A stretch of 64,000 nucleotides of DNA from Planctomycetota bacterium (GCA_965223505.1 CBDCWP010000039.1:209854-273853), one strand, 5' to 3'; positions 20,104-41,745 are shown, counted from the first letter of the stretch. Numbers and translations: made by a program. The notes: generated by a model not told the origin, from the letters alone.

Positions 20104-20124
20104 CCGCGCCCGGCTCGGAAGTGA

Positions 20125-20646: not shown

Positions 20647-20718
20647 GTCTCTTCGATCTTGACCGGGACTGTGACGTTCTGATCAGGGTAGCGGCTCTCT
20701 CCGGCGCTCCTCGTCGAG

Positions 20719-23162: not shown

Positions 23163-23404
23163 CAGGAGTGACCATCGGGGCGTCGTTCGTCACGTCGGGG
23201 CTCCACCCGGAAGCGTGCATGCGTACAGCCCGCTTCACATGTGACGTAGATCGCCCCGGCCTCGGGCAAGCGCTCAACGGTGACGGGGTCGCCGCACCAA
23301 GGACACGATACTGCACCGGCTTCAGTGCGATCCGCCTCCAGAGCCGCATCAACCACCGACCTCAGGCGGCGTTGCCGGTCATCAGGACGGTCGGTGCTCA
23401 TGCT
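23162..23404 (-). CDS. Small zinc-ribbon protein of 80 aa.
   Basis: GGAGAG SD before the ATG at 23404. CPWCG...C..C motif. The stop overlaps the downstream start (TGATG). Confidence 0.45.
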   Translation of the reverse strand, partial: SMSTDRPDDRQRRLRSVVDAALEADRTEAGAVSCPWCGDPVTVERLPEAGAIYVTCEAGCTHARFRVEPRRDERRPDGHS

Positions 23405-23417
23405 CTCCAGACTCAAC

Positions 23418-24563
23418 TCAGAAGTGTGACAGCCCGCCCAGCAACTCCATCCGGACGGGCTCGAACTCTGGCACGCCGAAGAGCCCGGGAAACCCCGCAC
23501 ATTCCAGGATGGTCGTTCTCAAGTACTCGATCAGAGTCGGCGCTCCCTTGGGAGCCGACATCGGCACGGCGGCTCCAGCCCATCGAAACTCCCGCCAGAT
23601 CGGGTCCCAGTCTGCCCCGGGCCAGACACCATAGGCAGGGCCGCCGCTGATGTTGTCCTTGTGGTACCCGTCCGGTGAGAGGGACATCACAAAGCCGCCG
23701 TGGCCTTCGGGGATTCCCGTCGGCTCGGGGTTCTCTGCCATCCAGTCGCGATGCTCTCGGAAGTCCTCACGGACCATGTCGATCCACTCCTCCGAGATGC
23801 CGTCAATGTGCAGCGCGTCAGAGAACCCGTTCGGCCCCTCGATGCGACGGTCTTCCCAGAACCTGCAATGCGTGTAGCCGTCCCCGTTCCCAGAGAACTC
23901 GACGAACGAGATACTCCCGACGATCCGCCAGAAGGCTGCGAGTGCGGGAGGAACCAACGCCGTCTCTGGCTCGATGAACTCCCGGATCGCGTCCTCCAGC
24001 GAGGCGATGAGAGCATCCACGTCCTGAGGTGGATCGATGACGACCGCTCTGGGATAGCCTAGGTCTGTGAGACGCCGAGCGAGTTCGATTGCCGTGGTGC
24101 GGCACCGCTTGAACAGATCCGGGGCGTTCTTCAAGGCATGTTCGGCGAGCGCGCCCCCCGCGAGAAGGTCCTCACGGAACCGTACCGAAGACTCGCGGAT
24201 GTGCTCGGGGTTGGGGTGATTGCCCGAGTGCCAGTAACCGTCCTCCGCGAGGCGCTCAACGATCTCCCGGGCTCCTCTGGCGTACCAGCGGTAGTCAGGC
24301 GAGTCGTTGGCGACGTACCGGATGGCCTCGCAGCCGTACATCGTACCGAGCCGCCCGTTGGCCTCGTGGATCGCCTCAACGATGACTGACTTCAACCTGC
24401 CGATGTCGAAGGTGCCGTGATCGCAGCCTCCGATCGGATCAAGACGTACAACCTCGGGGTCTGCCTCGGGCGTGTCGTTGATACGGAGACTGACCAAGGC
24501 GTGTCCAGGTCCCCAGATGTAGGCGACTTGGTACCAGCCGTCGAGAAGGGAGAACGAGGGCAT
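23418..24563 (-). CDS. Hypothetical protein of 381 aa.
   Basis: Long ORF with balanced composition. It sits in a tight operon, with a 3-nt gap to the upstream gene. Confidence 0.6.
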   Translation of the reverse strand: MPSFSLLDGWYQVAYIWGPGHALVSLRINDTPEADPEVVRLDPIGGCDHGTFDIGRLKSVIVEAIHEANGRLGTMYGCEAIRYVANDSPDYRWYARGAREIVERLAEDGYWHSGNHPNPEHIRESSVRFREDLLAGGALAEHALKNAPDLFKRCRTTAIELARRLTDLGYPRAVVIDPPQDVDALIASLEDAIREFIEPETALVPPALAAFWRIVGSISFVEFSGNGDGYTHCRFWEDRRIEGPNGFSDALHIDGISEEWIDMVREDFREHRDWMAENPEPTGIPEGHGGFVMSLSPDGYHKDNISGGPAYGVWPGADWDPIWREFRWAGAAVPMSAPKGAPTLIEYLRTTILECAGFPGLFGVPEFEPVRMELLGGLSHF

Positions 24564-24566
24564 CCG

Positions 24567-25195
24567 TCAGCCCCTCCGCTTTCGATCTTGCGCTTGACGC
24601 CCGTCCGGATGAGTCCAGAACTCACGACAAGACGGAGGCCAGTCCGGGTCTTCCCGATCGTGGATGGCGCACACCGGGCAGCCTTCCATGACCTGCCGCA
24701 CTAGGGCAACTTCATCGGGGCTCGTAGGCTGCTTGTATACGATGGCAGTCAGAGTGGCCGCCTGAAGGGCAAAGAAAGCGGGCGCATCGTCAACACAGCA
24801 CTCGTGCGTCAGGCACGCTTCCGGGTCTACGTAGAATCGACCCTCGGCAGCGGGCGCCATCGTGACCTTTGGATCTGCTTGCGACCGCCAGAAGTCCAAA
24901 GCACTTCCTCGAAGGTGGACCAGTATCGGATGGCCCGGCTGAGCCAGGTTCTCCAAGAAGCAGGTGCAGGCTGCTTCGTCCAACTCCCCGTCCTGTCCTC
25001 CAATCATCTCATTCAGCACTTCCGCGAGCGCCTTCCACCCCTCAGGCTGTACCTCCTTCTCCCGGACGAAGTGAGAGCAAGCGGCAAACACCCCGTGGAC
25101 CGAGTCCGAGTCGAACGGGTTGTCGGTCGAGCGGACGTACGCCTGGAAGCCCTGCAGCACGGCATCGAGACGGGCGGTGAGGTCATCGGGTGTCA
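24567..25195 (-). CDS. Hypothetical protein of 209 aa sharing its N-terminal domain with the gene at 22092-23162.
   Basis: ATG at 25195 (MTPDDLTARLDAVLQGF...). Conserved block DSVHGVFAACSHFVREKEV...LNEMIGGQDGELDEAACTCFLENLAQPGHP. Confidence 0.55.
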
Positions 25196-25374
25196 TGATC
25201 GAGTTCGACGCCAGCCTATCCGGACCGCCTGCGCCCCGCCCGGCGACCCGAAGTAGGCGGGGGCTGGCGGGTGCGCTCGTATCTATCGACTTCCCTACCC
25301 CTCCGATCCATGATCTGGAACATGCTCTGCGAGGGCCCAGGACCGCACCGCCAGAGCACACGGAGACAGGGACG

Positions 25375-25590
25375 GTGACCAACGATGTGAAACGGGCCAT
25401 CTTGCAGGTGCTGCGCGAGAGCGGGCCAATCGGCTGGTACGGCATCGAACTTAGGCTGCGGGTTCCACGGTCTGCGTTCGGTGACGGATACACCCTGATG
25501 ACCTACGTTGAGGAGTTGATCGCGGCCGGATCTGTCGCGCGCGTCACCGTCGATGGCGAGGAGCGCTTCGTGGCCGCCGACCAACGCTAG
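25375..25590 (+). CDS. Small hypothetical protein of 71 aa, possibly winged-helix-like.
   Basis: GTG start after GGAGACAGGGA. Product: ...AILQVLRESGPIGWYGIELRL... Confidence 0.35.
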   Translation: MTNDVKRAILQVLRESGPIGWYGIELRLRVPRSAFGDGYTLMTYVEELIAAGSVARVTVDGEERFVAADQR

Positions 25591-25712
25591 TCTGCTGCGG
25601 GGTCCGGAGCCGCGAAAGGTCCTTTCACGCTCCAAACTGCGAGGCGCCAATCTGCAACAAGATTTCCCGGCTCGGTACGCCGTGAGGTGGCGACGGCACG
25701 GGCACGGATAGG

Positions 25713-26081
25713 TCACTCTGGCTGTCCCTCCGCCATGAGGGTCTCTACGGATTCTCTGACACGCGGCGGCTCGATGTCATAGCCGCGCGCTCGGGCGCCG
25801 CTCCAATTGACCCCGACCTTCATGCCATCTTCGTTTAGCCCCGGCACCCTCCGATCGCAGAACTCCTGCCACGAAACCTCATACGGCTGGAAGCCTGAAT
25901 AGGCGGGGACCGTGTCGATGATGCTCTCCACGCGCGAGCGTGAAGACCAGAAGGGCTGGGCGCGCGTGCCGTCAGAGGTCCGAGGCGCCGGGAATCCACG
26001 CTCGTCCTTCAAGGTCCACAGCACCCGTGTGCGAGCGACTTCGCGGTAGAACGCCCATGCCTGAGAACCTGCTTGGCTCAT
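25713..26081 (-). CDS. DUF2750-like small protein of 122 aa (family assignment from memory).
   Basis: Motifs AFYREVA...LWTL.DE.G.PAP....G..A.PFWSSRSR...I......YSGF.P.E.SW..F match my recollection of DUF2750. The start overlaps the upstream stop (ATGA). Confidence 0.5.
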   Translation of the reverse strand: MSQAGSQAWAFYREVARTRVLWTLKDERGFPAPRTSDGTRAQPFWSSRSRVESIIDTVPAYSGFQPYEVSWQEFCDRRVPGLNEDGMKVGVNWSGARARGYDIEPPRVRESVETLMAEGQPE

Positions 26082-26374
26082 GGCCCACTCGACCCCGGCT
26101 CAGTTGCGTGCAGGTACTTGCCATCGACTTCGCCGCCCTTGTACGGGCCGTCACCGGACCCGTCATCGGTGGGCTCGTCAAACCACACCCAGTAGGTGAG
26201 GCTCACCCCCTTGGGCGTGACGAGTGTCCGAGGCTGGCCCTCCTCCCACTGTTCACCGGTGAGATTCCTGACCTCCTTGGGCCAATTGGCGACCGTGCCA
26301 GTAGTGCCGTCGGGCCACTCGGCGTGCCCGTGGATCGAGACCTTGGTTCCCGGGGGATGGACGTGATTGCTCAT
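26078..26374 (-). CDS. Hypothetical protein of 98 aa.
   Basis: ATG at 26374 overlaps the stop of the upstream membrane-protein gene. Composition is Trp/Gly-rich (…TYWVWFDEPTDDGSGDG…). Confidence 0.45.
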   Translation of the reverse strand: MSNHVHPPGTKVSIHGHAEWPDGTTGTVANWPKEVRNLTGEQWEEGQPRTLVTPKGVSLTYWVWFDEPTDDGSGDGPYKGGEVDGKYLHATEPGSSGP

Positions 26375-26655
26375 GCGAACCCGCCGTAGTCCGGCCTCGA
26401 CCAAGCCGATGACCCGTACTGTTCGCAAGGTCGAAGCCGGTTCTTGACCATCGCTGCCCAACGGGGAGCCTCCCAGAGCACCCAGGAGATCAGGAACCAG
26501 AGCGGTACGGCGGCGAGCCAGGGCCACACGGATTCCGGACCGACCAGCGCAACGGCGGTGCCGGTCATGGCTGCGGCTGCCCCGAACAGGACGAGCGGCA
26601 TCGGCGTGGAGGACACTCCCCTGACAGCACCGCACTCCCGGCATCGAGACTGCAT
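26371..26655 (-). CDS. Small membrane protein of 94 aa with 2 TM helices.
   Basis: Hydrophobic segments PLVLFGAAAAMTGTAVALVG and LAAVPLWFLISWVLW. It is first in a three-gene coupled operon. Confidence 0.4.
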   Translation of the reverse strand: MQSRCRECGAVRGVSSTPMPLVLFGAAAAMTGTAVALVGPESVWPWLAAVPLWFLISWVLWEAPRWAAMVKNRLRPCEQYGSSAWSRPDYGGFA

Positions 26656-26723
26656 GCATCCAGGGTACCCAGGCTGGCCTCCACGTGCGCCGTCGCGGCT
26701 CGTATCAACCGAAGCGCCATGCC

Positions 26724-26936
26724 ATGCTTGGGGCCATGAAGATCCACCGTCACGCTCCCAATGTGTATGTCATCTCGTCGTCCGAGCCCCAGGAGGTGAA
26801 GCAGTTCTTCGAGTCGCTCGGGCTCGTGTTTCAGGCTGAGAAGCATGGTGATGGACCTGAACATGTCGCGTGCGAGCGCAACGGTGTAGTCCTCGAAATC
26901 TACCCACTCGCCGCGCCGGAGAAGTCGCCGGAGTAG
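26724..26936 (+). CDS. Short VOC/glyoxalase-like fragment protein.
   Basis: …HAPNVYVISSSEPQEVKQFFESLGLVFQAEKHGDGPEHVA.E.NGVVLEIYPL resembles half of a VOC fold. There is no clear SD. Confidence 0.3.
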   Translation: MLGAMKIHRHAPNVYVISSSEPQEVKQFFESLGLVFQAEKHGDGPEHVACERNGVVLEIYPLAAPEKSPE

Positions 26937-26937
26937 T

Positions 26938-27537
26938 CTACGGCCACTCGACGAGTCGCTCGGACGGGCCCTCAAGTTCGAGCCACAACCCAGGATGTGA
27001 CTCGCCTGGATCACACCGGACGACACAATCGAGTTCCGCCGCAGCCGAACGAGCACAGTCTGCGTCCGTGTCCCACGGACGATGCACCGTGTTGAACCAA
27101 ACGCTCAGCCAGGGACCATCTTCGATCTTGGGTGTGAGGATGATTGCGCCTGTTGAAGGGTAGAGCGCGACCGCTCCGTCGATGTCCTTGGGGCCATCGA
27201 GGGCTCCGGTGGCGGAGGACTTCACCCACTTGATGGCTCGTTCGATCGCGCAGTTACGCAGGTAGACCTCAACGTCATCCTGCCGTGCGGGATGCTCTGT
27301 CGTCTCGGCCCTGGGAGACTCCTGCTCTGGGGGCAAGACCTCCAAGTCAGCCCTCTGCACGATCTGCTCAACGTAGAGACCGTGCTCGGATCCGTCAGGC
27401 TTGTGAAACTCGACCTCGACGTGCTGCGGGTCATCGTCGAAAAGGTCCAGCACCCGTCCCACAGCGCCACGACGCAATCCCGCCTCAGGCATGTCCACAC
27501 GCAGTCGCACAGGCTGGAAGAGTTGCACGATTGCCAT
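26938..27537 (-). CDS. Protein with an N-terminal DUF4926-like domain.
   Basis: …RLRVDMPEAGLRRGAVGRVLDLFDDDPQHVEVEFHKPDGSEHGLY… fits the DUF4926 pattern (DLPE.GL..G.VGTVV.VY.DG...EVEF) as I recall it. Confidence 0.5.
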   Translation of the reverse strand: MAIVQLFQPVRLRVDMPEAGLRRGAVGRVLDLFDDDPQHVEVEFHKPDGSEHGLYVEQIVQRADLEVLPPEQESPRAETTEHPARQDDVEVYLRNCAIERAIKWVKSSATGALDGPKDIDGAVALYPSTGAIILTPKIEDGPWLSVWFNTVHRPWDTDADCARSAAAELDCVVRCDPGESHPGLWLELEGPSERLVEWP

Positions 27538-27786
27538 CTTCGGAGAAGCGGCCAGCGCCCGCCAGCGCGAAGGGGCTCGGAGCAACCTCCGTGAATCGTC
27601 GGCATCGATCGCGTGGCCGCGTCCATGTACCTACCACGCTTCCTATCCAGAACGGTGCCCGCCGGATGCACACGGCTGCCGCTCGTTTCCGGTCCGGCCC
27701 GTGGGCGCTCGGAGACCCGATCTCCCCGAAACGGCCCGCAGACATGGAGAGAGCCCGGAAGAACGGTGTCTCCCGGGCTCTCAAGA

Positions 27787-27828
<42 letters not shown>

Positions 27829-28079: not shown

Positions 28080-28895
28080 GTGGCGCCTACACAGTTCCCG
28101 ACCGCCGAGCTTCAGGGGATCGCCAATGCGATGCAGGAGTTCGAGGCTGGCGCTTCCGTTGCAAACACCGGCACGGGCAGCCGCCGCGAGGGGAACCAGT
28201 TTGAGAAACTCGTCGGTGAGCTTTGGACCGAAGCGGCCACCTACCTCATCGCCAAGGGCGCCACGCCAACCAACGTCACGGGGCCGAAGGGCCACCGCTG
28301 GACGAAGCTGGAGTACGAGAGCAGGACGCTCTACCTCCCATCAGTCGATGCGATCCCAATGGTCTCCAACCTGACGGAAGAGCGCTGGCTGGGCCTCACC
28401 TATATGGTCAGCGATCTCATCGCAGCCTTCCCGGGGGAGGCCGAGGCCATCGAGCGATACGGTCCCGACATAGGCCCCTTCCAAGGCGAGGACTACCCCA
28501 AGATGTACGGCAAACGGTCAACGAGGTTTGACGACGCCATCGTCTTGGAAGATGACGGAGTGCTCAAGGAGAAGATCCTCCTTGAATACAAGACGGCCAA
28601 GAGCACAAGCAAGCGAGCCATCGACGGCAACGCGCACGAACGCCTCTCATTCCAGGTCCTTCAATACCTCGAAATCGCTACGCGCTACACTTGCTGCACG
28701 ATGGCGGTGCTCGCCAATGCAGCCTTCGTCAAGTACCTCAACAAGTACCACGTCAGCTTCCACGTCCAGGCAGATCGGCTAGCCAACTTCAAGTGGTTCA
28801 CGATGCAGCATGCCTGCACCGCGTTGGAATACGCGGGATTCGTCAACGGCCTCTTTGACTGGTTGCTCACGGGACGCGAAAGGGAGACCAAGTAG
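28080..28895 (+). CDS. Putative Type II restriction endonuclease with a PD-(D/E)xK-like motif.
   Basis: GTG start after GGAGGG. The motif …RFDDAIVLEDDGVLKEKILLEYKTAK… is present. The stop is 1 nt from the start of the downstream Dam-like MTase. Confidence 0.45.
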   Translation: MAPTQFPTAELQGIANAMQEFEAGASVANTGTGSRREGNQFEKLVGELWTEAATYLIAKGATPTNVTGPKGHRWTKLEYESRTLYLPSVDAIPMVSNLTEERWLGLTYMVSDLIAAFPGEAEAIERYGPDIGPFQGEDYPKMYGKRSTRFDDAIVLEDDGVLKEKILLEYKTAKSTSKRAIDGNAHERLSFQVLQYLEIATRYTCCTMAVLANAAFVKYLNKYHVSFHVQADRLANFKWFTMQHACTALEYAGFVNGLFDWLLTGRERETK

Positions 28896-28896
28896 A

Positions 28897-30075
28897 GTGC
28901 CCGTCAAGTACATCGGTTCCAAGCGCAAGCTCATCCCCGTCATCCTTCAAACAATCCGCGAGCTAGGTAGAGACTGCACGGTCCTCGATCTCTTCTCCGG
29001 CACGGCGCGCGTCGGCCACGCCCTCAAACGCGAGGGCTACCGCGTCATCTCCAACGACTATCTTGCCAGCGGGAAGACCATTGCCGAGTGCTACGTCCAG
29101 GCGGATGCGGAAGACTGGCTGCGCCAAGCGGAGATGCTCGTCAACGAGTTCAACGCCATCAAGGGGGAGCCGGGCTACTTCACCGACACCTTCTGCGTGC
29201 AGAGCCGCTACTTCCAGCCCAAGAACGGTGAGCGCGTCGATGCCATCCGCGAAGAGATTGAGCGCAAGGACTTGGAGCCCGAGCTGAAGGCCATCATGCT
29301 CGTTTCACTCATGGAGGCGGCCGACCGCATCGACTCCACCACGGGCGTCCAGATGGCGTACCTCAAGAAGTGGGCCGCCCGCGCCCACAACGATCTGGAA
29401 CTCCGAGTGCCGGACATCCTCCCGCGCGCCCGAGGCGGCAAAGGCGAGGCGCACCAGACTGACGCCCACACTGGCGCCGGGAACTTTGAAGCCGACATTG
29501 CGTATCTCGATCCGCCGTACAACCAGCACAGCTATCTGGGCAACTACCACATCTGGGAGTCGCTCGTCATGTGGGACAAGCCAGAGTTCTACGGCATCGC
29601 CTGCAAGCGGATGGACTGCCGGGAGCGAAAGAGCGCGTTCAACTTCAAGCGGAAGTTCTACGAGGCATGGAGCAGGGTTGTCCGCGAGGTGAAGGCGAAG
29701 CACCTTGTTATCTCGTTCAACAACGAGGGCTACATCAAGCGCGAAGCGATGGAGAGGCTCCTCTCCCGTCGCGGCGAAGTCTTGGTCATCGAGAACGACT
29801 ACAAGCGCTACGTCGGTGCGCAAATCGGCATCCACAACCTCAAGGGCGAGCGCGTTGGCGAGGTGAGCCACCTTCGCAACAAGGAGTACATCTACGTCGT
29901 CAGCCCCGAGCGCGCCATCAGGGAGACGGAAGCGCAGACTAACGGGACGCCCGTGCCGGACGCGACCCCTGAGCCCGACCCGAAGCCGAAACCCTCCCGC
30001 GTCTGCGAACACCTGCCCGAGCGCAAGCCCACCGGGCTCCCGGTCAAAGGGAAGCAGCTAGACCTGTTTTCGTAG
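28897..30075 (+). CDS. N6-adenine DNA methyltransferase, Dam-like D12 class.
   Basis: N-terminal KYIGSKRKL and catalytic DPPY motifs are present. AGGGAG SD precedes the GTG. Confidence 0.8.
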   Translation: MPVKYIGSKRKLIPVILQTIRELGRDCTVLDLFSGTARVGHALKREGYRVISNDYLASGKTIAECYVQADAEDWLRQAEMLVNEFNAIKGEPGYFTDTFCVQSRYFQPKNGERVDAIREEIERKDLEPELKAIMLVSLMEAADRIDSTTGVQMAYLKKWAARAHNDLELRVPDILPRARGGKGEAHQTDAHTGAGNFEADIAYLDPPYNQHSYLGNYHIWESLVMWDKPEFYGIACKRMDCRERKSAFNFKRKFYEAWSRVVREVKAKHLVISFNNEGYIKREAMERLLSRRGEVLVIENDYKRYVGAQIGIHNLKGERVGEVSHLRNKEYIYVVSPERAIRETEAQTNGTPVPDATPEPDPKPKPSRVCEHLPERKPTGLPVKGKQLDLFS

Positions 30076-30243: not shown

Positions 30244-32397
30244 CTAGGTGGCAACCACCCAGGTCGTGAAGCGCCCGGCGACGCTGGCAGACGGCCTCTT
30301 GTCTGTGTCCCAGCCGTTCTCGCCAAAGATCGATGTCATGGCTTGCGGCACGAGCCTATAGGCGACGTCATCTCGGTCCTCCATGACGTCGGGCAACTCC
30401 TCCTTGATCCTCTCCAAGACGCCGCGCCACGGGACCCCTCGCTCCCTGATCCGCTCGATGAATGCTTCATCTTCCTGAACTGCGCGAATTGCGGCTGACT
30501 GATAGGTGGCAAGTGCGTCTTCGGGTTCATCGGCATCGGCGAACGGGTCTTCGTCGGGCTCAGCGCTAGGGGGCTCCGCAGGTTCCACAGGTTCCCCGGA
30601 CACCTGAGGCACTGGCGCCTCGGCTGGAGCAGGGGCTGACCGCTTCGAGGCGAGTGCGCTCGCGAACCTCTGTTCGAGCTTTACCGCAGCGGTCTCGACA
30701 GCGCCCATCTCGTAGTTCGGGTCTCGTGTTTCGTAGAGGCCCTCGAACAGCATCACCCTAAGAGGAATCGGATAGCTCTTCCCTCCCACGCTGCTCCAGA
30801 AGACGCCATGTCCTGGAATCGGCTCGTTCAGAAGCGAAGACAGTATGTCGTTGCTGAAGTGCGCATTTGCCTTCCGAACCGCTTGAAGATCACCGGCTGA
30901 CAGCAGATGGAAGATGAACCAGTTGTCCCCCTGGCTCAGGATTTCGTGCGTAATCGCGCCCGGCTGCTGGGTGATCAACACTGCTCCTAGGTCGTACTTG
31001 CGTCCCTCCTTGACCCACTCTACGTATGGCCCCTCGCCAGAGCTTCCGCGCGATCCCAAGACCGACTGCGCCTCCTCCACGACAGCGATCACCGGCACAG
31101 TCTGGGGATCCGCCTTCGTGAATTCTTGCTGGTTTCGATCGAAGATCCGGCGCAGGATCAAGCCAGACAGCACAAGGGCTGGAGTCCCGCGCATTTGAGA
31201 GACATCGACGATGCAGATGCAGCCCTGTGCTAGGGCCGCGAAGAGCATGTCGATCAACTGGCTGCTTGGATCGTGGAGCATTCGCACGACAGTTGTCATG
31301 TTGGCTCTCGCCGCGACCATTTCCGCGTCTTGACCATCCTCCAAGCGCATGAGGCGCCTGACAGTGTTCCCGTCAGCACCATTGCCGTCGCGATGTATGA
31401 GATCTACTAGCTCCTTCCAATCCGCGTCGTTCAGCCCTTTCAACTTCCGGACGTTCTGCTGCTCCTGTTTTTCGGGCGTGAGTGCGATGGAGAGCACATC
31501 ACTGGGACGGAGTCGGCGGATGTCCAGTCGGATGTCGCCAGCAACGAACGACTGGTAGAACGGACTAGGTCCACTCTTTGGAGTGAAGACTACTACTCGG
31601 TCCTCCAGCGCCGGAACGTCACAGAGCCCCGGCCGGTTCTTGTCGTCCGGCCAGAAGTACTCCCCATCCGGATCGAAGATCAAGGTCCCGACGGGTACCT
31701 CCCGCCCTCCACGTTTGGGAACCGTCGGCGTATCCGCGTAGAGGTCAGCGAACAGCAGCTTGACGAGATTCGACTTGCCGAAGCCTGCGCGCGCAAACAC
31801 GAGTGTGCGACGGGCCACGAGGTGCGACACTTCGAATCGGGGAACGACGCAAGGTGCCTTGATCTGCATCCAAGGCTGCGACTCGAATCGCGAATCGCCC
31901 GATGCGTAGACGAACTCGCCCAGCGCAAGGTGTCCAAGCTCGGCGGCACCGGCTGAGTTGTGACCAGCTACTTCTTGCAGCACGTCGTCCGGAAGGAAGC
32001 CAACCTTGCTGCCGACGTGCGGCAACCGACGATGCGATGCCGCAAAGATCAGGTTGCCGTTCTCCACGCGCAGGACACCGAGAACTCGCATGTTGATCCG
32101 GTACTTGAGGTACTGCTCGCGTAGATCCTCCGGTACGACGCGCTCCTCTGAGACGGCCCGAATCCCGTAGTCCTCTCCAGCGGGAGATGCGAGTCGGCCT
32201 TGGGACGCGATCGAAGTGATGCGTCCCAGCACAGCCTCCTCATCGTGCTCCAACTGGACAAGAAGGAACTGCCCGTGCATCGGGATGCTCTGGAATTCGC
32301 TCCGATACGGCAGAATGAGGTCAGCGTGAAACTCCATGCCTCCTTCGCTGAATCCCCTGAAGATCCCGACGGTCGTCGCACGGGTAAATAGATTCAC
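30244..32397 (-). CDS. HerA/FtsK-like P-loop ATPase (DUF87 / HerA helicase family).
   Basis: Walker A FARAGFGKSNL, Walker B CICIVDVSQ, and the conserved ITQQPGAI...LSQGDNWFIFHLLSAGD block. GTG start overlaps the NurA-like stop (GTGA). Confidence 0.75.
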   Translation of the reverse strand: MNLFTRATTVGIFRGFSEGGMEFHADLILPYRSEFQSIPMHGQFLLVQLEHDEEAVLGRITSIASQGRLASPAGEDYGIRAVSEERVVPEDLREQYLKYRINMRVLGVLRVENGNLIFAASHRRLPHVGSKVGFLPDDVLQEVAGHNSAGAAELGHLALGEFVYASGDSRFESQPWMQIKAPCVVPRFEVSHLVARRTLVFARAGFGKSNLVKLLFADLYADTPTVPKRGGREVPVGTLIFDPDGEYFWPDDKNRPGLCDVPALEDRVVVFTPKSGPSPFYQSFVAGDIRLDIRRLRPSDVLSIALTPEKQEQQNVRKLKGLNDADWKELVDLIHRDGNGADGNTVRRLMRLEDGQDAEMVAARANMTTVVRMLHDPSSQLIDMLFAALAQGCICIVDVSQMRGTPALVLSGLILRRIFDRNQQEFTKADPQTVPVIAVVEEAQSVLGSRGSSGEGPYVEWVKEGRKYDLGAVLITQQPGAITHEILSQGDNWFIFHLLSAGDLQAVRKANAHFSNDILSSLLNEPIPGHGVFWSSVGGKSYPIPLRVMLFEGLYETRDPNYEMGAVETAAVKLEQRFASALASKRSAPAPAEAPVPQVSGEPVEPAEPPSAEPDEDPFADADEPEDALATYQSAAIRAVQEDEAFIERIRERGVPWRGVLERIKEELPDVMEDRDDVAYRLVPQAMTSIFGENGWDTDKRPSASVAGRFTTWVVAT

Positions 32398-33557
32398 GAG
32401 TACCTCCGCCCCGACACATCGCTCTTCAACTGAATGCCCTCGAAGAGTTCGCGCTCCTCATCGCCGAGGAGACTGCGGACGGCGCCAGACACTTCGTCCT
32501 GGAGTATGTCGAGGTCGAAGTCCACCACCTCTGCGTGCTCGTGTGCCTTCTGAAGGCATCGCGGGTAGAGCGGAACTGGAAACCCGTCCGTGGCATCCGC
32601 CAGCAGATAGGCGAACACCTCGGCGGCGCTGCCCGACTGGCTACTCAGGAGATCGACGGGCCAGATCGGATCGCCATCGCGTTCACCAAACCTCACGAGG
32701 TACATATCCCCTGCCACGAACTTTGGCGCTTCTCCCGCCGCCCCTTCTTCTTCGCTGCCGCGAGCGTACTCGGGCCAGACGTACGCCTTCGCCTCGATCG
32801 CACGCGGGACGCGCACGTACCGAGGGGATCCCGCTGCAAGCACCTTCTCCAGGGCCAGAGCCAAGCCGTACCGCACCAGCACCTTGCTGTGTTTGGCCAA
32901 GCCGACAAGGAACACGCGCCGCCTGTGGTCTGCGTGAATCCGCTCGATGGCAGATTCGATTCGGCGCCGGAAGTCGATGAACAACTCTCCTCGGAATACT
33001 TTGCTCCGCAACAGCCCGTCCCGGACCATGAGGGTGTCGGTCGCAAACTCGCGGTAGCAGATCCGCTCGTAGAGTGCCGCCCACTCACACAGGTCACGGT
33101 AGACGAGCACCCACGATGGCGAGATTGAGTGCGGCTCTTCCCGCACCCGCCTGCCTGAGGGGATCATGTGGCTGAGCCGCGTGAGGGTCCTCGGCTCGCT
33201 CAAGAGATCAGCCATGAGCGTGCCCAGAGCGGTCTGGGGTTCCCCATGTTCATCAAACTGGGCGCGGCTCAGCGCATCCGTATCCGTGGTCGGCGTGACG
33301 GCGTCGAGGCACAACTGCTCACCGTACGAATCGACGACTCTCACGAGTTGCACGTGAAAGGGATCGAACACCAGTTTGTTGTTTCCGCCGTCGCTTGCAA
33401 CAAGCGACACAGATGTCGTCGTTCGAGGTCGGATAGTGCGAGCTTCTGGCCGCAATACGCGAACGTCCGCCCGAAGCTCATCGAGAATCCGCCTGTCCCT
33501 AACTGTGGCGTTGCGAATCGCCGCGCGCAGGCCAGGAAGTTCGGCAGGGTCAAACAT
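32394..33557 (-). CDS. NurA-like nuclease, the predicted partner of the HerA-like ATPase.
   Basis: …SLVASDGGNNKL… resembles the NurA xxDGS catalytic motif. Position between the MTase and HerA supports the call. The assignment is from memory, not a profile search. Confidence 0.5.
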   Translation of the reverse strand: MFDPAELPGLRAAIRNATVRDRRILDELRADVRVLRPEARTIRPRTTTSVSLVASDGGNNKLVFDPFHVQLVRVVDSYGEQLCLDAVTPTTDTDALSRAQFDEHGEPQTALGTLMADLLSEPRTLTRLSHMIPSGRRVREEPHSISPSWVLVYRDLCEWAALYERICYREFATDTLMVRDGLLRSKVFRGELFIDFRRRIESAIERIHADHRRRVFLVGLAKHSKVLVRYGLALALEKVLAAGSPRYVRVPRAIEAKAYVWPEYARGSEEEGAAGEAPKFVAGDMYLVRFGERDGDPIWPVDLLSSQSGSAAEVFAYLLADATDGFPVPLYPRCLQKAHEHAEVVDFDLDILQDEVSGAVRSLLGDEERELFEGIQLKSDVSGRRYS

Positions 33558-34640
33558 GCCAGCCCCTCCACTTTGCGGTCACATCGATCTCACGCACGGG
33601 GTCGCTCGCGGAGGCAGAAAACTGCCTCGATTGGCGCTTGCCACTTGACGCGGAGCCTGCGTCACGAACCGAGGTGACCCTCCATCGCCCACCGACTCCA
33701 CGAAGCGACTCTCGGATCATCTCCTCAGGGTCAACAGGGAGACAGGGCAAGCAGCCGAATCTCACTACGAGCGTGGCATTCCGGGCACACACACCCGCAA
33801 CATTCTTCCAGACCGTGCGTAGCTCCCTCACGAACTCCGCCTCGGTGTGCTGGAGTTGAGCGTCCTGTGCGTAGTCCACTCGTGGCGGGCCTCCCAGGAA
33901 CCAGTTCCTTAGCCACTGATCTGGGACGTATGTGCGCATGCCGAAGTAGGGAGGCGACGTCACTACCCAATCGAACTGTGTGCTCATGCTCGCCGCAAGC
34001 TCAGTAGTCCTAGCGTCCGCCTGCACAACAGCACCTCTTGTCGGTGCCGGTAGGCTCTCCAAGCAGAAGCGCGCCCGACGCGAAATGGCGTCGAGAACAT
34101 CTACCCTCGGCGGACGAGATAGAGCATTCCGCCCCCAGTAGCCCAGCGCAGGTCCTGGCTTTGTGGCGTACGTCCTTGGCATCTGATTCGAGAGGTACGT
34201 CGGTAGTCCCTTGTTCATCGGGCCGTGGAGGATGCCCAAGACGAGCGCTCTCAAGATGACGTCTGTCTGCGTGCGCACGCCCTCCAGGAAGGCGTCACGG
34301 AGCCTGCAAATGTCTCGCAAGGTCGATGGCGCGTAGCAGCTTCGCCAGAACTTCCCGGTCGGCGTGGAGCCTGGGACCCGATCGTTGATCAACTCGACTG
34401 CGCGATCAACGACGTCATCTGGCGTTGCTGACGCCAGCTTTGCCGCAGCAACGGCGGCGGCGACTGGGCTACTATCGATGCCAACGGTGGGCAGTCCGAG
34501 TAGGCGCGCGGCAAACGTCGTCGTCCCCCGGCCACAGAACGGATCCAACACCCACTGTCCCGGAGTAGCTCTCTCTAGCGCGGACAGGGGGAACTCCACT
34601 GGGAACATCGTGTAGTAAGGGCATATCGTGTGAAGGCGCA
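33550..34640 (-). CDS. DNA methyltransferase of the N4/N6 (PF01555-like) type.
   Basis: Motif I-like WVLDPFCGRGTTTFAARLLG and motif IV SPPY (…VVTSPPYFGM…). The stop overlaps the NurA-like start by 8 nt. The alternative upstream start at 34755 has no SD. Confidence 0.75.
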
Positions 34641-35033
34641 TCGACTTGCCGCTCGTCGTCGGTGCAGACGATGGCGGCCTAGGTGTCACCCGCCGCCTAA
34701 ATGCAACGGGGCGAGCCGAGGACCGTGCTTCGGAGAATGTGACACCGTCAACCAAACCAGCAGACCTCTCACGCCACGATTACGACCGACTCCACGCCCT
34801 TCACGTGGCGCACAAGCATATTGGCGCCGTCGGACTGCGGCATAGCCCCGAAGTCAACCGCCAGACGCCTGACAGTTCAGGGATTCATGATCCCCTTCGA
34901 AGTGCTGGCGCGCTCGCCGGACCGGATCGCTCGCCAGCCCCAAGAACTGGCCACTTCAGGAGAATCTGAGAAACATCGCCGTGCCGTCCTGGAGGCCCGC
35001 ATTTGACCTCGTGGCGCCAAAGGACGCCGCGAC

Positions 35034-35264
35034 ATGCCCAAGAACAACCCCAAGCAGGACCCGGACGGGCTCTTCACCCTGGAGAGAGCCGCCGCGTACC
35101 TCACCATCTCCCAGAGGACCCTTCGCTCGCATCGACAACTGGGACTGATCCCCGTCGTCCAGGTCAGCAAGCGCCGAATCGCTTTCGACAAGGCCGATCT
35201 CGACGCCTACCGCGAGCAGCAAAAGCAGCGCGGCCCACGCCGTCGCTTCGGGAGGCGGTCATGA
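35034..35264 (+). CDS. Excisionase/AlpA-like HTH DNA-binding protein.
   Basis: …LFTLERAAAYLTISQRTLRSHRQLGLIPVVQVSKRRIAFDKADLDAY… The stop overlaps the integrase ATG (ATGA). Confidence 0.65.
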   Translation: MPKNNPKQDPDGLFTLERAAAYLTISQRTLRSHRQLGLIPVVQVSKRRIAFDKADLDAYREQQKQRGPRRRFGRRS

Positions 35265-36697
35265 TTCCGCCTCGGGGACTTGGCCAAAGTGGGAATCGTG
35301 GCCAACTGGGGGACGCGATGACCAACGCATCTCCTCGACTCCCGCTCGCCGGTGTGATCGAAGCGCGCGCCGCCTCCGTGCCCAAGAAGAAGATCAAGCG
35401 CAGGCCCAAGGCTCCCACCGGCCTCTACCGACCCCCGTACGTCTGCAAGAAGTGCGACGTCTGCGTCCGGCGGAAGGCGAAGCAGGCCAAGAAGGGCGAG
35501 CGCTGCCTGGAACCGAAGAGGGTGAGGACCTGGTGGTACCGCAAGTCGATTCGCGGAGTCCGCCGCAAGCCAGTAAGCACAGGCTGCACGGATCTCCGCA
35601 ACGCCATCGAGGTCGCGGCCCAGCTACGCGATGAGTGGGAACGGCAAGCAGTCGGGCTCAAGCGCCGTGGCCGCATGAGCATCGAGGAGGCCAAGGAGGG
35701 CTTCCGTAAGTACCTCACGACGCAGAAGGGCAGCCCCCAGTACATCGACACGCAGATGGGTTACTTGGACGAAGTGCTCATCGCCGCCGGGATCCGCTTC
35801 GTAGACGAACTCGACGAGGGGGTCTTTGCTGACTGGCTTCCGATCGCCAAGAAGAAGAGGCTTCGGGCTCGCGGGAAGAACGTACGCCTCTACCCCCTCA
35901 AGCGCCTGGGAGAGTGGCTGCTCAAGAAGGGCGAGTGCATCGATCCCTTCGCGCTGCTTGTGCCCTACGACGAGGAGAAGGACCGCGCCCACGTCCGACG
36001 GGCCATGTGGCCGGGAGAGTGCGCTCGGTTCCTGAAAGCCGTGAGGACACGTCAGATCGAGCGGGCTCGGGAGTACCGGGTGCGCGCGGGTCTCTCGCGT
36101 GGGGCCATGATCAAGATGCGGCGTGAGGGCCGAGTCCGGGCGCTGGTCTACAACACGGTGGCCCAGACGGGGCTGCGGCGCAAGGAGACGCGGCTGCTCC
36201 TGATCAAGAACGTGGACTTCGACGCCGGGGTCATCTGGATCCCCCAAGGCGTGGCGAAGTCCAGACACGAGCAGTACGTGCGGCTCAACAGCGATCTGGC
36301 TCGGCGCCTGAAGTCATACCTCCGGACGCTCGGTGATGTGTCCGACGAATCGCCCCTCTTCCCAGCGACCAGGACGCACTCGGGCAAGCGCGCGCCGAAG
36401 TCGGCCGTCCCCACGATCAAGACGTTCGACAAGGACCTGGAGGCTGCGGGCCTGCCTAAGAAGGACGCCCGCGACCGCGTCCTGGACTTCCACGCCCTCC
36501 GGATGACCTACATTACGCACCTTCGTGTAGCGGGCGTCGAGCTAGGAATGGCGAAGCGGTTGGCCCGACACTCCGACATCAAATTGACCGAGGACATCTA
36601 CACGGACTTCGACCTGATGGCTGGGCCGGAGCGCGAGGCCGCCGAGATGCTGGTGCCGGAGCGGCGGCGGCAGCGGTTCGTGCCGGAGGTGAGGTAG
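35261..36697 (+). CDS. Tyrosine recombinase/phage-type integrase, full length.
   Basis: GGAGG lies 5 nt before the ATG. The catalytic box is …FHALRMTYITHLRVAGVELGMAKRLARHSDIKLTEDIYTD… (R…H..R…Y). Confidence 0.8.
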   Translation: MIPPRGLGQSGNRGQLGDAMTNASPRLPLAGVIEARAASVPKKKIKRRPKAPTGLYRPPYVCKKCDVCVRRKAKQAKKGERCLEPKRVRTWWYRKSIRGVRRKPVSTGCTDLRNAIEVAAQLRDEWERQAVGLKRRGRMSIEEAKEGFRKYLTTQKGSPQYIDTQMGYLDEVLIAAGIRFVDELDEGVFADWLPIAKKKRLRARGKNVRLYPLKRLGEWLLKKGECIDPFALLVPYDEEKDRAHVRRAMWPGECARFLKAVRTRQIERAREYRVRAGLSRGAMIKMRREGRVRALVYNTVAQTGLRRKETRLLLIKNVDFDAGVIWIPQGVAKSRHEQYVRLNSDLARRLKSYLRTLGDVSDESPLFPATRTHSGKRAPKSAVPTIKTFDKDLEAAGLPKKDARDRVLDFHALRMTYITHLRVAGVELGMAKRLARHSDIKLTEDIYTDFDLMAGPEREAAEMLVPERRRQRFVPEVR

Positions 36698-36719
36698 GAG
36701 GCCGAAGACGGACTCTCCG

Positions 36720-38080: not shown

Positions 38081-38289
38081 ATGGGATCCTCCAGGGAACG
38101 CGCCGCGACGATTAGCAGTTCCCGTGGCGCTTGGCCCAGCACTGTACTCGGGTCTACCCCGGCTGCGGTTGCCCCGAGCGCGAGGCGGCCGAGATGTTCG
38201 TGCCGGAGCGGCGGCGGCAGCGGTTCGTGCCGGAGGCGCGGTAGGGGCTACGACTGCATCTCCTGCCGCAGAACAGACGGGCTATCGGG

Positions 38290-38991: not shown

Positions 38992-39743
38992 TTACGACAG
39001 CCGCCGCCGCAGCGCCGGAGGCGCGTCCTCCCTGGCCTCGGGACCGCGCCAGACCTCCTCGAAGTCGCGCTCGCCCATGGCCCACCGGATGTCAGCCGGG
39101 CCACGAAAAAGATCGTCGGGAACAGGGCGAACCGCATGGGGGTTCTCGTAGACGGTGACCCAGGGCAGGGACTCGACAGGATCGGGCTCGCTGGTGACGA
39201 GGTCCAGATACGCCCTTGACCGCATGCCGTCAGCGTCTGCCAGCCGCCGGAGTTCGACAGCGTGCCGCTCCTCGGCCAAGTCACGGATGCCGAGGACGAC
39301 CACAGCCGACACACGGGTGTTCGACCGCTCCGTCAGAATCGCCGGGCGATCGACGGGCCCGCCCCCGAATGCCGCGAGAAGGACGGCGGCGGGAAAGTCG
39401 AACACGGCGTCGGGTCGTCCCGCATTGCACAGGGCGACGTAGCACCCGTGGTCCGTGAACGCCTTGAACTTCTTCAGGGCGTCCTTGATGCGCGACCACG
39501 GCACCTTCGTGTAGTCCAAGGACCCGCCCGGGAGGTGGTCGTAGTTGGTGGGGGCCGGGCAGTCCTTCACTTCGCAGAGGAGGAGGCCGGTGGCGTGCTC
39601 GATGCCGTAGTCCGGCCCGCGATGCTGCTGGCCCGGGGGCGGCGGTGGCAGTCCCGGACGCGGTTCTCGAAGCAGGTCCGGGTACCCGATCGAGTCCATG
39701 TACTCCTCGAAGAGGCGTTCGGAGGGGCGGTCGTTGTTGTCCA
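38992..39743 (-). CDS. Hypothetical protein, the full-length paralog of the truncated gene at 18402-18722.
   Basis: GTG start. The N-terminal ~95 aa are about 85% identical to the 18.4-18.7 kb copy. The protein then continues …FKAFTDHGCYVALCNAGRPD…. Confidence 0.55.
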
Positions 39744-39794
39744 CGGTGGAAGCGTACCGGCTCTGGCCGACGGGTGGAAATGCGACCGCTGGGC

Positions 39795-40154
39795 TCAGGC
39801 GGGCTTGGCTGCATAGACTTGCAGTGCGTAGCACCCCGGCTCTGACGTGCCATCGCACCAGAGACTAAGACTGTTGCTGATCTCCTCGACCTTGGGCGCT
39901 CCGCCAACACACTGCACGAACTCGATGACATCAAGGACGATCTCGGGCCAGGTTCCTCTGTGGTTTGTCTCAAACAGGGAGAGGAAGTACCCGTCGTGGT
40001 GGCGCTCGATCCTCGGAGGGCTCGTTGGCTCTCGGAGACGCTTGAGAAACCCATGCAGAACACGCTCGGCCTTCTGGGGCGTGCGAGCGTCGATGAAGAG
40101 ACGCCATGAGCATGCCACGTCCAAGCGATCAGGGTCACCCACAGATGTCCGCAT
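39795..40154 (-). CDS. Hypothetical protein of 119 aa.
   Basis: ORF with a plausible globular composition. Confidence 0.4.
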   Translation of the reverse strand: MRTSVGDPDRLDVACSWRLFIDARTPQKAERVLHGFLKRLREPTSPPRIERHHDGYFLSLFETNHRGTWPEIVLDVIEFVQCVGGAPKVEEISNSLSLWCDGTSEPGCYALQVYAAKPA

Positions 40155-40543: not shown

Positions 40544-41533
40544 TTGCGGGCCTCGTTCAGACTGACTGGGTTCGGGCCAACCGCCCGGTCGGGACGCGCT
40601 CTGACCGAAGGAGAACTGACACAGCTCCTCGACGTGGCCCGCCAAAGACCGGTGCTAGACGCCACCACCATCCGCCGGGGTGCTCGGAAGGGACAGCGAG
40701 TGGCCCGGATCAGTGACAAGACTCGGCGAGACAAGGAGCGGTTGGGGCTGGAGCGGGCCTTGATCTACAAGACGCTCGTCTTGACTGGATTGAGACGAAA
40801 CGAACTCGCGTCGCTCACCGTCGCCTCTCTCGTTCTCGATGCCCCGGTCCCGCATCTTGTCCTCGACGCGCGCGATGAGAAGAACCGTCAGGGCGCTGAG
40901 ATCCCCCTCAGAGCGGACCTTGCCGCCGACCTAGCGCAGTGGACAGACGAGACTCTTCAACGCGCCAGAGCAGCAGCCAGAGCGTCAGGCGAAGCCGTCC
41001 CGGCTCGCCTCCCCGCAGATGCGCCGCTCTTCTACGTTCCCAAGGCGCTCGTCAAGATTCTTGACCGTGACTTGAAGTTGGCCGGGATCGCCAAGAAGGA
41101 CAATCGTGGGCGCAGCGTCGACATCCACGCGCTCCGGCACAGCTTCGCAAGTCACCTCAGCAAGGGCGGCGTCGCACCGCGAACCGCGCAGGCCGCGCTA
41201 CGACACAGCGACATCAATCTCACGATGGTCACCTACACGGATCCTGCGTTGCTGGACGTAGCGGGCGCGTTGGATGCCCTGCCGTCCCTATCCCTCGGCG
41301 AGGAGGCCTCTGACCGGGCACGTGCAGGGACCGGCACCGATGGCAAGACCGAAGCGTCGGGACCGCTTGCACCAACGCTTGCACCAAACTGGCACAAGCG
41401 TGGGCAATCGCTGTCAACGCCTGACAAAGCTGAGAGCTTCAATGCGAGTGCGAGGAAGCGCCGCGCATCGCCACCGAGCCGCAAGAAGTTGGCTGCTGCG
41501 GCCATTGGCTCCCCCCGGGAGGGGGAGAGAGAA
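40544..41533 (+). pseudogene. N-terminally truncated tyrosine integrase (catalytic domain only) abutting tRNA-Pro.
   Basis: Only the C-terminal catalytic region is present: …DIHALRHSFASHLSKGGVAPRTAQAALRHSDINLTMVTYTD… There is no N-terminal core-binding domain, and upstream frames are non-coding-like. The ORF runs through the tRNA. Confidence 0.6.
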
Positions 41534-41609
<76 letters not shown>

Positions 41610-41745
41610 GACTCCACGTCGGACGACGGAGGATACCCGGCCCCCTACGATCCCGGACCAATTGCAACCCCCCGACAAACCCCAACAAATAGGGCATCCC
41701 GAAAAAACTCTCGTACGACCCCGCCCCCCATGCATCTGAAAGGGC

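Follow-up and report, generated by a model that had tools for sequence, protein, structure and literature searches.

In thermophiles, TdpABC provides defence based on DNA phosphorothioation (An et al., Nat Chem Biol 2025, PMID 39820821; PDB 8wet, 8wfd, 8y1k), and TdpAB has been described as the restriction part of this modification-based system. Phosphorothioates reportedly stop or prevent the action of TdpAB on DNA (An et al., 2025, PMID 39820821). A second precedent is ICEth1 of Thermus thermophilus HB27. This 14.9-kb element has an integrase and 47-bp direct repeats, and it occupies the 3′ end of a tRNA gene (PMC5365140). Its operon encodes, in order, TthHB27I, the NurA-like TTC1878, TdtA (TTC1879), and the methylase TTC1880 (Blesa et al., 2017, PMC5365140); TdtA is a HerA-like hexamer of 568 aa, and the methylase belongs to PF01555 (PMC5365140). 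In Thermus, transjugation (DNA donation) requires the NurA-like gene and tdtA, and loss of the methylase was reported to be nearly neutral and not lethal (PMC5365140, PMC7767461), contrary to what would be predicted for classical restriction-modification (R-M). ICEth1 remains the only experimentally studied operon with a NurA-like nuclease, a HerA-like ATPase, and a methylase, and it was found to be needed for donation, not defence (PMC5365140, PMC7767461).

Here we analyse a three-gene cassette within a 64,000-nucleotide stretch of DNA from a Planctomycetota bacterium (GCA_965223505.1 CBDCWP010000039.1:209854-273853), referred to below as the window, in which all coordinates are counted.

Results

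Three overlapping genes encode a methylase, a nuclease, and an ATPase

ORF calling identified three minus-strand genes that overlap start to stop at positions 30244-34641: a DNA methyltransferase (33550-34641; 363 aa), a TdpB-like nuclease of the NurA/RNase-H fold (32394-33557; ATG start, 387 aa), and a HerA-like ATPase (30244-32397; GTG start, 717 aa). The methylase and nuclease genes share 8 nt (33550-33557), and the nuclease and ATPase genes share 4 nt (32394-32397). When read from its first TTG the methylase ORF spans 33550-34755, but alignment with 19 orthologues indicates that translation begins at the ATG at 34641 (MRLHTICPYY…). The genes are real and not chance ORFs of a GC-rich genome, because more than 3000 homologues of the nuclease and more than 4000 of the ATPase exist, and the best 120 listed for each are 66-77% identical over their full length.

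The methylase contains the SAM-binding motif I (DPFCGRGTT, residues 33-41) about 190 residues ahead of the catalytic motif IV (TSPPY, residues 228-232), an order that is permuted relative to the Pfam model. Both DPFCGRG(T/S)T and TSPPY are invariant in an alignment of 20 orthologues. The protein matches Pfam PF01555 (N6_N4_Mtase; 8e-12, 46 bits against a gathering cutoff of 26.7) and, over residues 9-281, the PADLOC model MTase_II PDLC03325 (1.9e-16). These profile matches and invariant motifs show that it is an intact SAM-dependent N4/N6 DNA methyltransferase, although no methylation data are available. Its product can only be inferred and is likely to be N4-methylcytosine, since the catalytic motif is SPPY. 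Beyond the catalytic motifs, the orthologue alignment also revealed further conserved stretches (LHGP, SNQMPRTYATKP, DQWLRNWFLGG, and GKRQSxQF). No hypervariable target-recognition region was found in the methylases, unlike many diversifying R-M systems.

The nuclease carries the motif VASDGGNN, and its candidate catalytic residues are Asp56, Glu158, Asp180, Lys222, and His339. The catalytic D/E/D/H residues are invariant between the family of the window nuclease and TdpB, and the protein meets the test for the NurA family, an RNase-H-like fold with conserved acidic and histidine catalytic residues. We conclude that it is a TdpB homologue. It did not match Pfam NurA (PF09376), the only Pfam match at E ≤ 1 being a chance one to His_Phos_1, nor did it match any PADLOC model, and Pfam, PADLOC v2, and NCBIfam all fail to detect it. 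One UniRef homologue is named 'NurA domain-containing protein'.

The ATPase matches Pfam DUF87 (PF01935) at 1.5e-16, above the cutoff, and PADLOC HerA models at 4e-18 to 1e-8. Its best sequence match in the PDB is TdpA (8wet_A, 1.9e-19), with archaeal HerA at 6e-11, and it is 25% identical over 519 aa (E 1e-23) to the TdpA of a Tdp locus in our set (L034); it is thus a TdpA homologue. The Walker A motif is ARAGFGKSN at residues 203-210, and GFGKSN is also the Walker A of TdpA. In the alignment to TdpA, ICIVD (residues 394-398) pairs with VVILD, and VIAVVEEAQ (residues 436-444) pairs with FLVVLEEAH, so the Walker B motif with its catalytic glutamate is likely to be VIAVVEEAQ rather than ICIVD. 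Similarity to DUF87 and TdpA lies within the N-terminal and RecA-like motor part (residues 1-560; 30718-32397, minus strand), the most conserved part of the cassette, with a mean pairwise distance of 0.24. In the translation this part is followed by a low-complexity linker rich in Pro, Ala, and Glu (approximately residues 561-625; 30523-30717), where column conservation drops to 0.39-0.55, and by a C-terminal winged-helix domain that is absent from TdpA (residues 626-717 plus the stop codon; 30244-30522). The winged-helix domain co-diverges specifically with the methylase, but only weakly (r 0.22), and it is possible that this signal reflects shared fast evolution.

An initial annotation, made from sequence alone, had proposed these three ORFs with their 8-nt and 4-nt overlaps, an N4/N6 DNA methyltransferase with DPFCGRGTT and SPPY, a NurA-like nuclease with VASDGGNN, and a HerA/FtsK-like P-loop ATPase of 717 aa. 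All of these held, the nuclease on its fold and catalytic residues, the Pfam PF09376 check being negative. Its Walker A (GFGKS) also held, its Walker B (ICIVD) is probably wrong, and its end coordinate of 34640 is one base short of the methylase start.

The trio is syntenic across phyla and resides here on an integrative element

The methylase gene adjoins the nuclease/ATPase pair in 27 of the 30 testable loci, which represent at least 16 phyla; isolates bearing the trio include Methylacidiphilum fumariolicum SolV, Thermovorax subterraneus, and Calderihabitans maritimus. Three loci (L023, L025, and L032) contain the pair with no methylase within 8 kb, and in four others (L022, L024, L029, and L033) the order is nuclease-ATPase-methylase. 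The three genes show congruent pairwise distances (Spearman 0.83-0.93), and the trio has been inherited as a unit across many phyla. The patchy distribution, together with 66-77% identity across unrelated phyla, points to horizontal transfer. The family is not limited to thermophiles but occurs in many mesophilic phyla. Of the 33 related loci, most lie outside recognisable mobile elements, neighbouring genes vary from locus to locus, and no conserved fourth gene was found in these neighbourhoods. Neighbours include Type I and Type III R-M systems, GmrSD-like proteins, SIR2-HerA, and PIN proteins.

In the window, the cassette lies within a 13.7-kb element of lower GC that is flanked by perfect 43-nt direct repeats of the 3′ part of tRNA-Pro. 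The tRNA-Pro(CGG) gene was identified by ARAGORN at 41534-41610 (minus strand); its 3′ part constitutes the proximal att repeat (41533-41575), which is matched perfectly by the distal repeat at 27786-27828. A 25-mer of the repeat occurs only at these two sites and was found 0 times in shuffles. A tyrosine recombinase/integrase gene (35003-36697, plus strand; Pfam Phage_integrase, 9.5e-15) is divergent from the cassette, and a second tyrosine-recombinase ORF (40544-41692, plus strand; Phage_integrase, 2.3e-15, residues 62-234 only) overlaps the tRNA-Pro gene on the opposite strand. Within the same element and outside the cassette is a Type II R-M pair (28080-30075), consisting of a plus-strand REase ORF (28080-28895; PADLOC REase_II PDLC03579, 3.8e-31) and a plus-strand methylase of the D12 class (Dam-like; 28810-30075; PADLOC MTase_II PDLC03298, 2.5e-150; Pfam MethyltransfD12, 2.4e-35). 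No PAPS-reductase gene was seen among the scanned ORFs of the element.

The cassette compared with described systems

Tdp loci are ordered DndC-like PAPS reductase (TdpC), TdpB, TdpA in 17 of the 17 cases with enough upstream sequence, and the window shares this order of modification enzyme, nuclease, and ATPase. The window ATPase meets the test for a TdpA-type protein and the nuclease that for a TdpB-type protein; the TdpC test is not met, as a SAM-dependent N4/N6 methylase stands where Tdp has its DndC-like TdpC. The TdpC of L034 is PAPS_reduct/DndC-like, and sequence comparison found no similarity between it and the window methylase. Furthermore, the shared proteins are only 25-28% identical, and the linker and winged-helix domain add about 155 aa that TdpA lacks.

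Judged by gene types alone, ICEth1 resembles the cassette in combining a NurA-like nuclease, a HerA-like hexameric ATPase, and a PF01555-family methylase in one operon. The ICEth1 order of nuclease, ATPase, and methylase recurs in the four loci noted above, and the window element is similar in its size, its location at a tRNA 3′ end, its 43-nt repeats, its integrases, and its adjoining R-M pair. ICEth1 differs in having a fourth co-transcribed gene, encoding a type IIG enzyme, in a TdtA of 568 aa that lacks the C-terminal winged helix, and in its published role in DNA donation during transjugation.

Other systems are less similar. The canonical HerA-NurA resection complexes of Sulfolobus, Thermococcus, and Deinococcus have no linked modification enzyme, occur in a repair-gene context (mre11/rad50), and are much more distant in sequence; Pfam NurA misses the window nuclease. 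SIR2-HerA and DUF4297-HerA likewise employ a HerA-like ATPase as the scaffold of a defence complex (PDB 8wiv, 8j4u, 8ziq, and others match), but they are not modification-based; the genes adjoining the window ATPase encode a NurA-fold nuclease and a methylase, and membership in these systems was rejected. MADS (methylation-associated defence system, mad1-8) comprises eight genes, of which mad6-8 are mandatory in its authors' model. Weak PADLOC matches to mad2 (9e-8) and mad8 (2e-10) fell short of those to the generic models for MTase_II and HerA, and none of the mad models matched the nuclease, so MADS membership was also rejected. Type I and Type III R-M systems similarly couple a methylase to an ATP-driven motor and a nuclease, but the window motor is a ring-forming HerA/FtsK-type ATPase and not an SF2 helicase, and its nuclease has an RNase-H/NurA fold and not a PD-(D/E)xK fold.

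The initial annotation had also placed the cassette in a tRNA-Pro island beside a conventional Type II R-M pair, which held, and the survey of homologue neighbourhoods that it proposed showed the trio to be syntenic. It had reported no match to BREX, DISARM, Dnd, Gabija, HerA-Sir2, or HerA-DUF4297, which held for the two HerA systems tested. Its view that the architecture is not a recognised one held only in part, because Tdp (a homologous pair in equal gene order) and the Thermus ICEth1 operon are precedents. It had named absence of a NurA/RNase-H-like fold, absence of synteny, and a match to a named system as grounds for refutation; none was met outright. Each testable part of its interpretation held, and overall that interpretation is supported.

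Discussion

The cassette is likely to be an undescribed, methylation-based relative of Tdp, because it is built like Tdp with a methylase as the DNA-marking enzyme. On balance, and by a modest margin, we favour the view that it functions as a methylation-dependent, Tdp-like R-M defence system carried on an integrative element. We infer this function from homology and context; there are no functional data for the cassette family, and both methylation and restriction await demonstration. The intact methylase with its TdpA- and TdpB-like partners, the Tdp-like gene order, and the linkage of the three genes as a unit support this reading, as do the att-bounded tRNA-Pro element with its integrases and Type II R-M pair and the R-M and defence neighbours at other loci. 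Against it stand the three loci without a methylase, the lack of a hypervariable target-recognition region, and the donation role of ICEth1.

In the proposed mechanism, the methylase would mark host DNA. The HerA-like protein would assemble as a hexameric ring, load on double-stranded DNA, and translocate using ATP, and the NurA-like nuclease docked on the ring would degrade unmarked DNA. By analogy with phosphorothioates and TdpAB, methylated sites would stop or prevent degradation. A ring that grips the backbone could not feel a base methyl group, and so two routes of sensing may be envisaged. In the more likely one, six tethered C-terminal winged-helix domains, which TdpA does not have, would probe sites, in keeping with the weak co-divergence of this domain with the methylase; in the other, the methylase itself would be the site-recognition subunit, like Mod in Type III systems.

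The second route leads to a possible but less favoured variant in which a Type III-like complex uses the methylase as its sole sequence reader, recruiting or licensing the NurA-HerA motor at unmethylated sites, with the winged helix serving only for protein contacts. The 8-nt overlap of the methylase and nuclease genes is consistent with such a complex, the conserved non-catalytic regions of the methylase could be interaction surfaces, and protein contacts are a frequent role of winged helices such as those in cullins and Cdt1. A more distinct rival is a DNA-donation machine, in which the ring ATPase exports chromosomal or element DNA after processing by the nuclease, the methylase is an accessory, and defence plays no part. 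Its support comes from ICEth1, in which transjugation depends on the NurA-like gene and tdtA but scarcely on the methylase, and which the window element strikingly resembles in outline. We nevertheless consider it unlikely: most related loci lie outside recognisable mobile elements and differ in their neighbours, genes for conjugation or secretion are absent from the cassette neighbourhoods, TdpAB, the closest relative with a characterised structure, has been described as a restriction component, and TdtA is without the C-terminal domain found in the window ATPase.

Housekeeping resection of double-strand-break ends by a canonical HerA-NurA pair that happens to lie beside an unrelated methylase is very unlikely. 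The archaeal and Deinococcus resection complex does share the HerA and NurA folds. However, the cassette is in an att-bounded mobile element of lower GC, its patchy distribution and cross-phylum identity indicate horizontal transfer, the methylase is linked at nearly all testable loci, the window proteins resemble TdpAB much more closely than they do repair HerA/NurA, and scores against curated NCBIfam repair-HerA models fall far short of the cutoffs.

Returning to the Tdp-like defence reading, a bolder form of it would take the TdpAB-like pair as a general 'restriction chassis' for unrelated marks, phosphorothioate via TdpC and base methylation via the methylase, with the six tethered winged helices reading the methylation state of particular sites and gating degradation coupled to translocation. 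We offer this tentatively, thinking it more probable that it is wrong. If true, it would define a new and widespread class of ATP-dependent R-M, and the 'transjugation' apparatus of ICEth1 would be a by-product of such a system; the Thermus operon could be reinterpreted in this light. It also raises the mechanistic question of how a ring translocase might sense a major-groove methyl group, for which the extra winged-helix domain is a candidate answer.

Members of the family number in the thousands and come from at least 16 phyla, mostly uncultured lineages with poorly known defence repertoires, and current defence-finding pipelines would miss the system because its nuclease is undetected by the profile collections searched. 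In hosts such as Methylacidiphilum fumariolicum, the methylase is likely to be a barrier or a marker for genetic work. If our interpretation is correct, modification-dependent restriction by HerA/NurA would be a modular design that also uses base methylation, and not a thermophile curiosity tied to phosphorothioation.

Gene layout and protein identities

The three ORFs of the cassette together occupy 30244-34755 on the minus strand. The upstream ORF has its first in-frame ATG at 34641 and ends at 33550, giving a methylase of 363 aa; its N-terminus, MRLHTICPYYTMFP, matches the N-termini of 19 orthologues in an alignment, which places the start at 34641. The methylase gene ends 8 nt inside the middle gene (32394-33557, minus strand, ATG start, 387 aa), which in turn ends 4 nt inside the gene for the HerA-like ATPase (30244-32397, minus strand, GTG start, 717 aa).

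The middle protein matched nothing in Pfam, PADLOC or NCBIfam, the last of which contains no TdpB model. When the PDB was searched with a profile of 33 homologues, the only match was TdpB (1e-3), the nuclease of the phosphorothioate-based Tdp defence system of thermophiles. Asp56, Glu158, Asp180, Lys222, and His339 (D56, E158, D180, K222, H339) are invariant across the middle-protein family and the TdpB homologues. The sole PDB match and these five shared residues uphold the initial annotation's designation of this protein as NurA-like, and specify it more exactly as TdpB-like. The ATPase scores above the Pfam DUF87 cutoff. Among proteins of solved structure, the closest to it in sequence is TdpA (1.9e-19), the HerA-like ATPase of the same system; Sulfolobus HerA (6e-11) ranks behind TdpA, as do the HerA components of the SIR2-HerA and DUF4297-HerA systems.

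Every motif that had been proposed for the three proteins was found, and the sole change concerns the Walker B motif of the ATPase, which had been assigned to ICIVD. ICIVD pairs with VVILD of TdpA, and the hhhhEE box VIAVVEEAQ pairs with FLVVLEEAH of TdpA in the alignment; ASCE ATPases usually carry their Walker B motif and catalytic Glu in a box of this kind.

The methylase exceeds the Pfam N6_N4_Mtase cutoff (46 bits vs 26.7), and its residues 9-281 match the PADLOC Type II methylase model. The SAM-binding motif DPFCGRG(T/S)T and the catalytic motif TSPPY are invariant in 20 orthologues, with motif I located ∼190 residues ahead of motif IV, an order permuted relative to the Pfam model. Because SPPY, not DPPY, is typical of N4-cytosine enzymes, m4C can be guessed as the product. 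A hypervariable target-recognition region was looked for in the methylase and none was seen.

Conservation of the trio

For the middle protein there are >3000 homologues; identity to it is 66-77% among the best 120, and these reach lineages as distant as Bipolaricaulota, Planctomycetota, Poribacteria, and Bacillota. A survey that took one genome per species gave 33 loci. The methylase lies upstream of the nuclease/ATPase pair in 23 of the 33 and downstream of the ATPase in four (L022, L024, L029, and L033); three truncated loci could not be assessed for its presence. In the remaining loci, L023, L025, and L032 (8001-11300 in each), no methylase was found within 8 kb of the pair. ORFs considered there as alternative modification enzymes were rejected as wrong-frame Arg/Pro-rich artefacts. 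These pairs could rely on a distant methylase, act alone, or be relics. In L023 a Mu-like transposase is located downstream of the pair.

The same trio is present in the isolate Calderihabitans maritimus (strain KKC1), and Methylacidiphilum fumariolicum SolV and Thermovorax subterraneus DSM 21563 are further hosts of the cassette. Pairwise distances are congruent among the three genes (Spearman 0.83-0.93), with divergence lowest in the ATPase motor (0.24), followed by the nuclease (0.35) and the methylase (0.45). Pfam and PADLOC scans of 104 pooled neighbouring ORFs revealed no conserved fourth gene, and the flanks vary by locus. Defence genes, namely Type I and III R-M, GmrSD-like, SIR2-HerA, and PIN genes, account for several of the neighbours. 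A GmrSD_N (DUF262) protein, a type of modification-dependent restriction enzyme, is encoded upstream in L022 (6213-7796) and L029 (4230-5960), both of which have the order nuclease-ATPase-methylase. Plasmid and phage collections contained no match to the cassette family and IMG/VR just three contigs carrying it, and these results led us to reject an origin on a plasmid or phage. A cluster look-up of distant family members returned no names.

Decay or interruption seems to have affected some family members. In L012 (9149-13935) the match to the HerA-like gene is split into two segments separated by several kb, the nuclease of L031 (8001-9781) is cut at residue 169 and fused to the ATPase from residue 387, and the nuclease matches of L027 and L033 are partial.

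A C-terminal winged-helix domain on the ATPase

The ATPase is ∼130 residues longer than TdpA, and a 92-residue C-terminal domain follows a weakly conserved Pro/Ala/Glu linker. Structure modelling predicts this domain to be a winged helix (pLDDT 92). No part of the cassette evolves faster (0.56). Once the component in common with motor and nuclease was removed, using Kimura-corrected distances and quadratic terms, the divergence of the domain still tracked methylase divergence (partial r 0.22, permutation p 0.005). Control pairs in the same test showed no correlation (0.02 and 0.10). The co-divergence is specific though weak, and it is compatible with a domain that may read the DNA sites of the methylase or touch the methylase itself. 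Ring translocases with a tethered winged helix have precedents in FtsK-gamma and Streptomyces TraB, the latter mentioned in PMC5365140.

The element and its surroundings

A perfect 43-nt repeat (27786-27828 and 41533-41575), a copy of the 3′ part of tRNA-Pro(CGG), flanks a 13.7-kb element with a GC content of ∼0.60-0.66, compared with ∼0.70 outside. Besides the cassette, the element encodes a Type II REase and D12 methylase pair, two tyrosine recombinases, a NYN-domain protein, and a weak HEPN-like ORF. The REase ORF (28080-28895) overlaps the D12 methylase ORF (28810-30075) by 86 nt; the PADLOC REase model covers only the C-terminal half of the REase ORF (residues 132-261), so that its start or frame may be misjudged. 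The tRNA-proximal integrase ORF (40544-41692) lies across the tRNA-Pro gene, which is on the other strand, and may be N-terminally truncated or frameshifted, since its Pfam match is confined to residues 62-234 of 382. The last 73 nt of the other integrase gene (35003-36697), at 36626-36698, recur with 92% identity 1.5 kb downstream at 38173-38245, perhaps left over from another recombinase gene or from a rearrangement inside the element.

GC content remains low (∼0.62-0.67) for ∼14 kb beyond the att-bounded element (14000-27785), a stretch that contains IS copies and encodes a Cys_rich_CPCC protein, a ferredoxin-domain protein, and a DUF4926 protein. This could be an older island in tandem; a further tRNA-Pro repeat was sought for it and not found. 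A repeat of at least 300 nt, 87% identical, links 18439-18738 in this region with 39461-39760 inside the element, within an unannotated ORF (38992-40138 region). Another of at least 300 nt, 100% identical, joins 17382-17681 and 21056-21355; since the second falls within the gene for a Mutator-family transposase (20834-22075; Pfam 5e-101), one IS element is probably present here twice.

Farther out, 12729-13811 is a head-to-tail array of ∼30 copies of a 33-nt unit, with 60-91% identity to a reference copy, and presumably encodes an 11-residue repeat protein; no other stretch of the window is as GC-rich (0.76), and long ORFs overlap there on both strands. Just outside the element, a 1115-aa ORF (41746-45093) combines ECF-type sigma-70 regions 2 and 4 with eight CarboxypepD_reg-like repeats, a fusion that would be unusual if this is indeed one gene.

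Proposed mechanism and alternative explanations

What is established for the cassette is its homology and architecture, the intactness of its catalytic motifs, its co-inheritance, and its mobile/defence context; the mechanism is inferred. In the model we favour, the methylase would mark host DNA, and a HerA-like hexamer with a NurA-like dimer would load on DNA, translocate with ATP, and degrade DNA lacking the mark, methylated sites blocking degradation by the complex. The TdpAB hexamer is reported to grip the backbone of one strand, with the phosphorothioate sulfur disturbing that grip (An et al. 2025). A base methyl could not be sensed through such a backbone grip, and therefore another reader is needed; the winged-helix domain would be the favoured candidate, with the methylase itself as the alternative.

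The main rival is that the cassette serves DNA donation, as in the Thermus thermophilus HB27 element ICEth1, which a full-text literature search turned up. The ICEth1 operon encodes a restriction enzyme, a NurA-like protein (TTC1878), the HerA-like ATPase TdtA (TTC1879; AAS82221), and a PF01555 methylase (TTC1880) within a 14.9-kb tRNA-integrated element (PMC5365140). In outline, without any sequence comparison, this strongly resembles the element studied here. The NurA-like and tdtA genes are needed for donation and the methylase is nearly dispensable (PMC5365140, PMC7767461). However, TdtA lacks the extra C-terminal domain of the cassette ATPase, and most related loci are not within recognisable mobile elements. 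We consider donation unlikely. A housekeeping role, in which the cassette would take part in repair, is also judged improbable.

Relation to known systems

PADLOC assigned only generic MTase_II and HerA labels and weak mad2/mad8 matches, with none for the nuclease; MADS was rejected on its definition. NCBIfam has no curated name for the cassette proteins, and no named methylase-NurA-HerA system was found in the full-text literature searched or in the PADLOC v2 or NCBIfam models. This unnamed status holds for those sources, and mention of methylase-linked TdpAB homologues in An et al. or in DefenseFinder updates is not excluded. The gene trio as such was already drawn for ICEth1 in 2017 (PMC5365140), and Tdp makes modification-dependent HerA/NurA restriction a known kind of system.

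A protein-database search with a 126-aa TdpB fragment gave no match. Tdp loci were gathered by a metagenome scan with a TdpA fragment from the PDB alignment, which yielded 21 loci, including L034, 100% identical to the PDB sequence. The first product of L034 is PAPS-reductase/DndC-like (344 aa; Pfam PF01507; NCBIfam DndC 2e-44) and must be TdpC; TdpB (375 aa) and TdpA follow. TdpC alone is reportedly enough to make phosphorothioates (PMC12914056). The order TdpC-TdpB-TdpA is present in all 17 Tdp loci with enough upstream sequence. The cassette has the same gene order with homologous second and third genes: its nuclease is 28% identical to TdpB over 149 aa (E 4e-8), and its ATPase is 25% identical to the L034 TdpA over 519 aa (E 1e-23). 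In contrast, the first gene encodes a methylase, for which no relationship to TdpC of L034 was found. From this homology and gene order, we conclude that the cassette and Tdp represent a swap of modification enzymes on a common nuclease/ATPase chassis.
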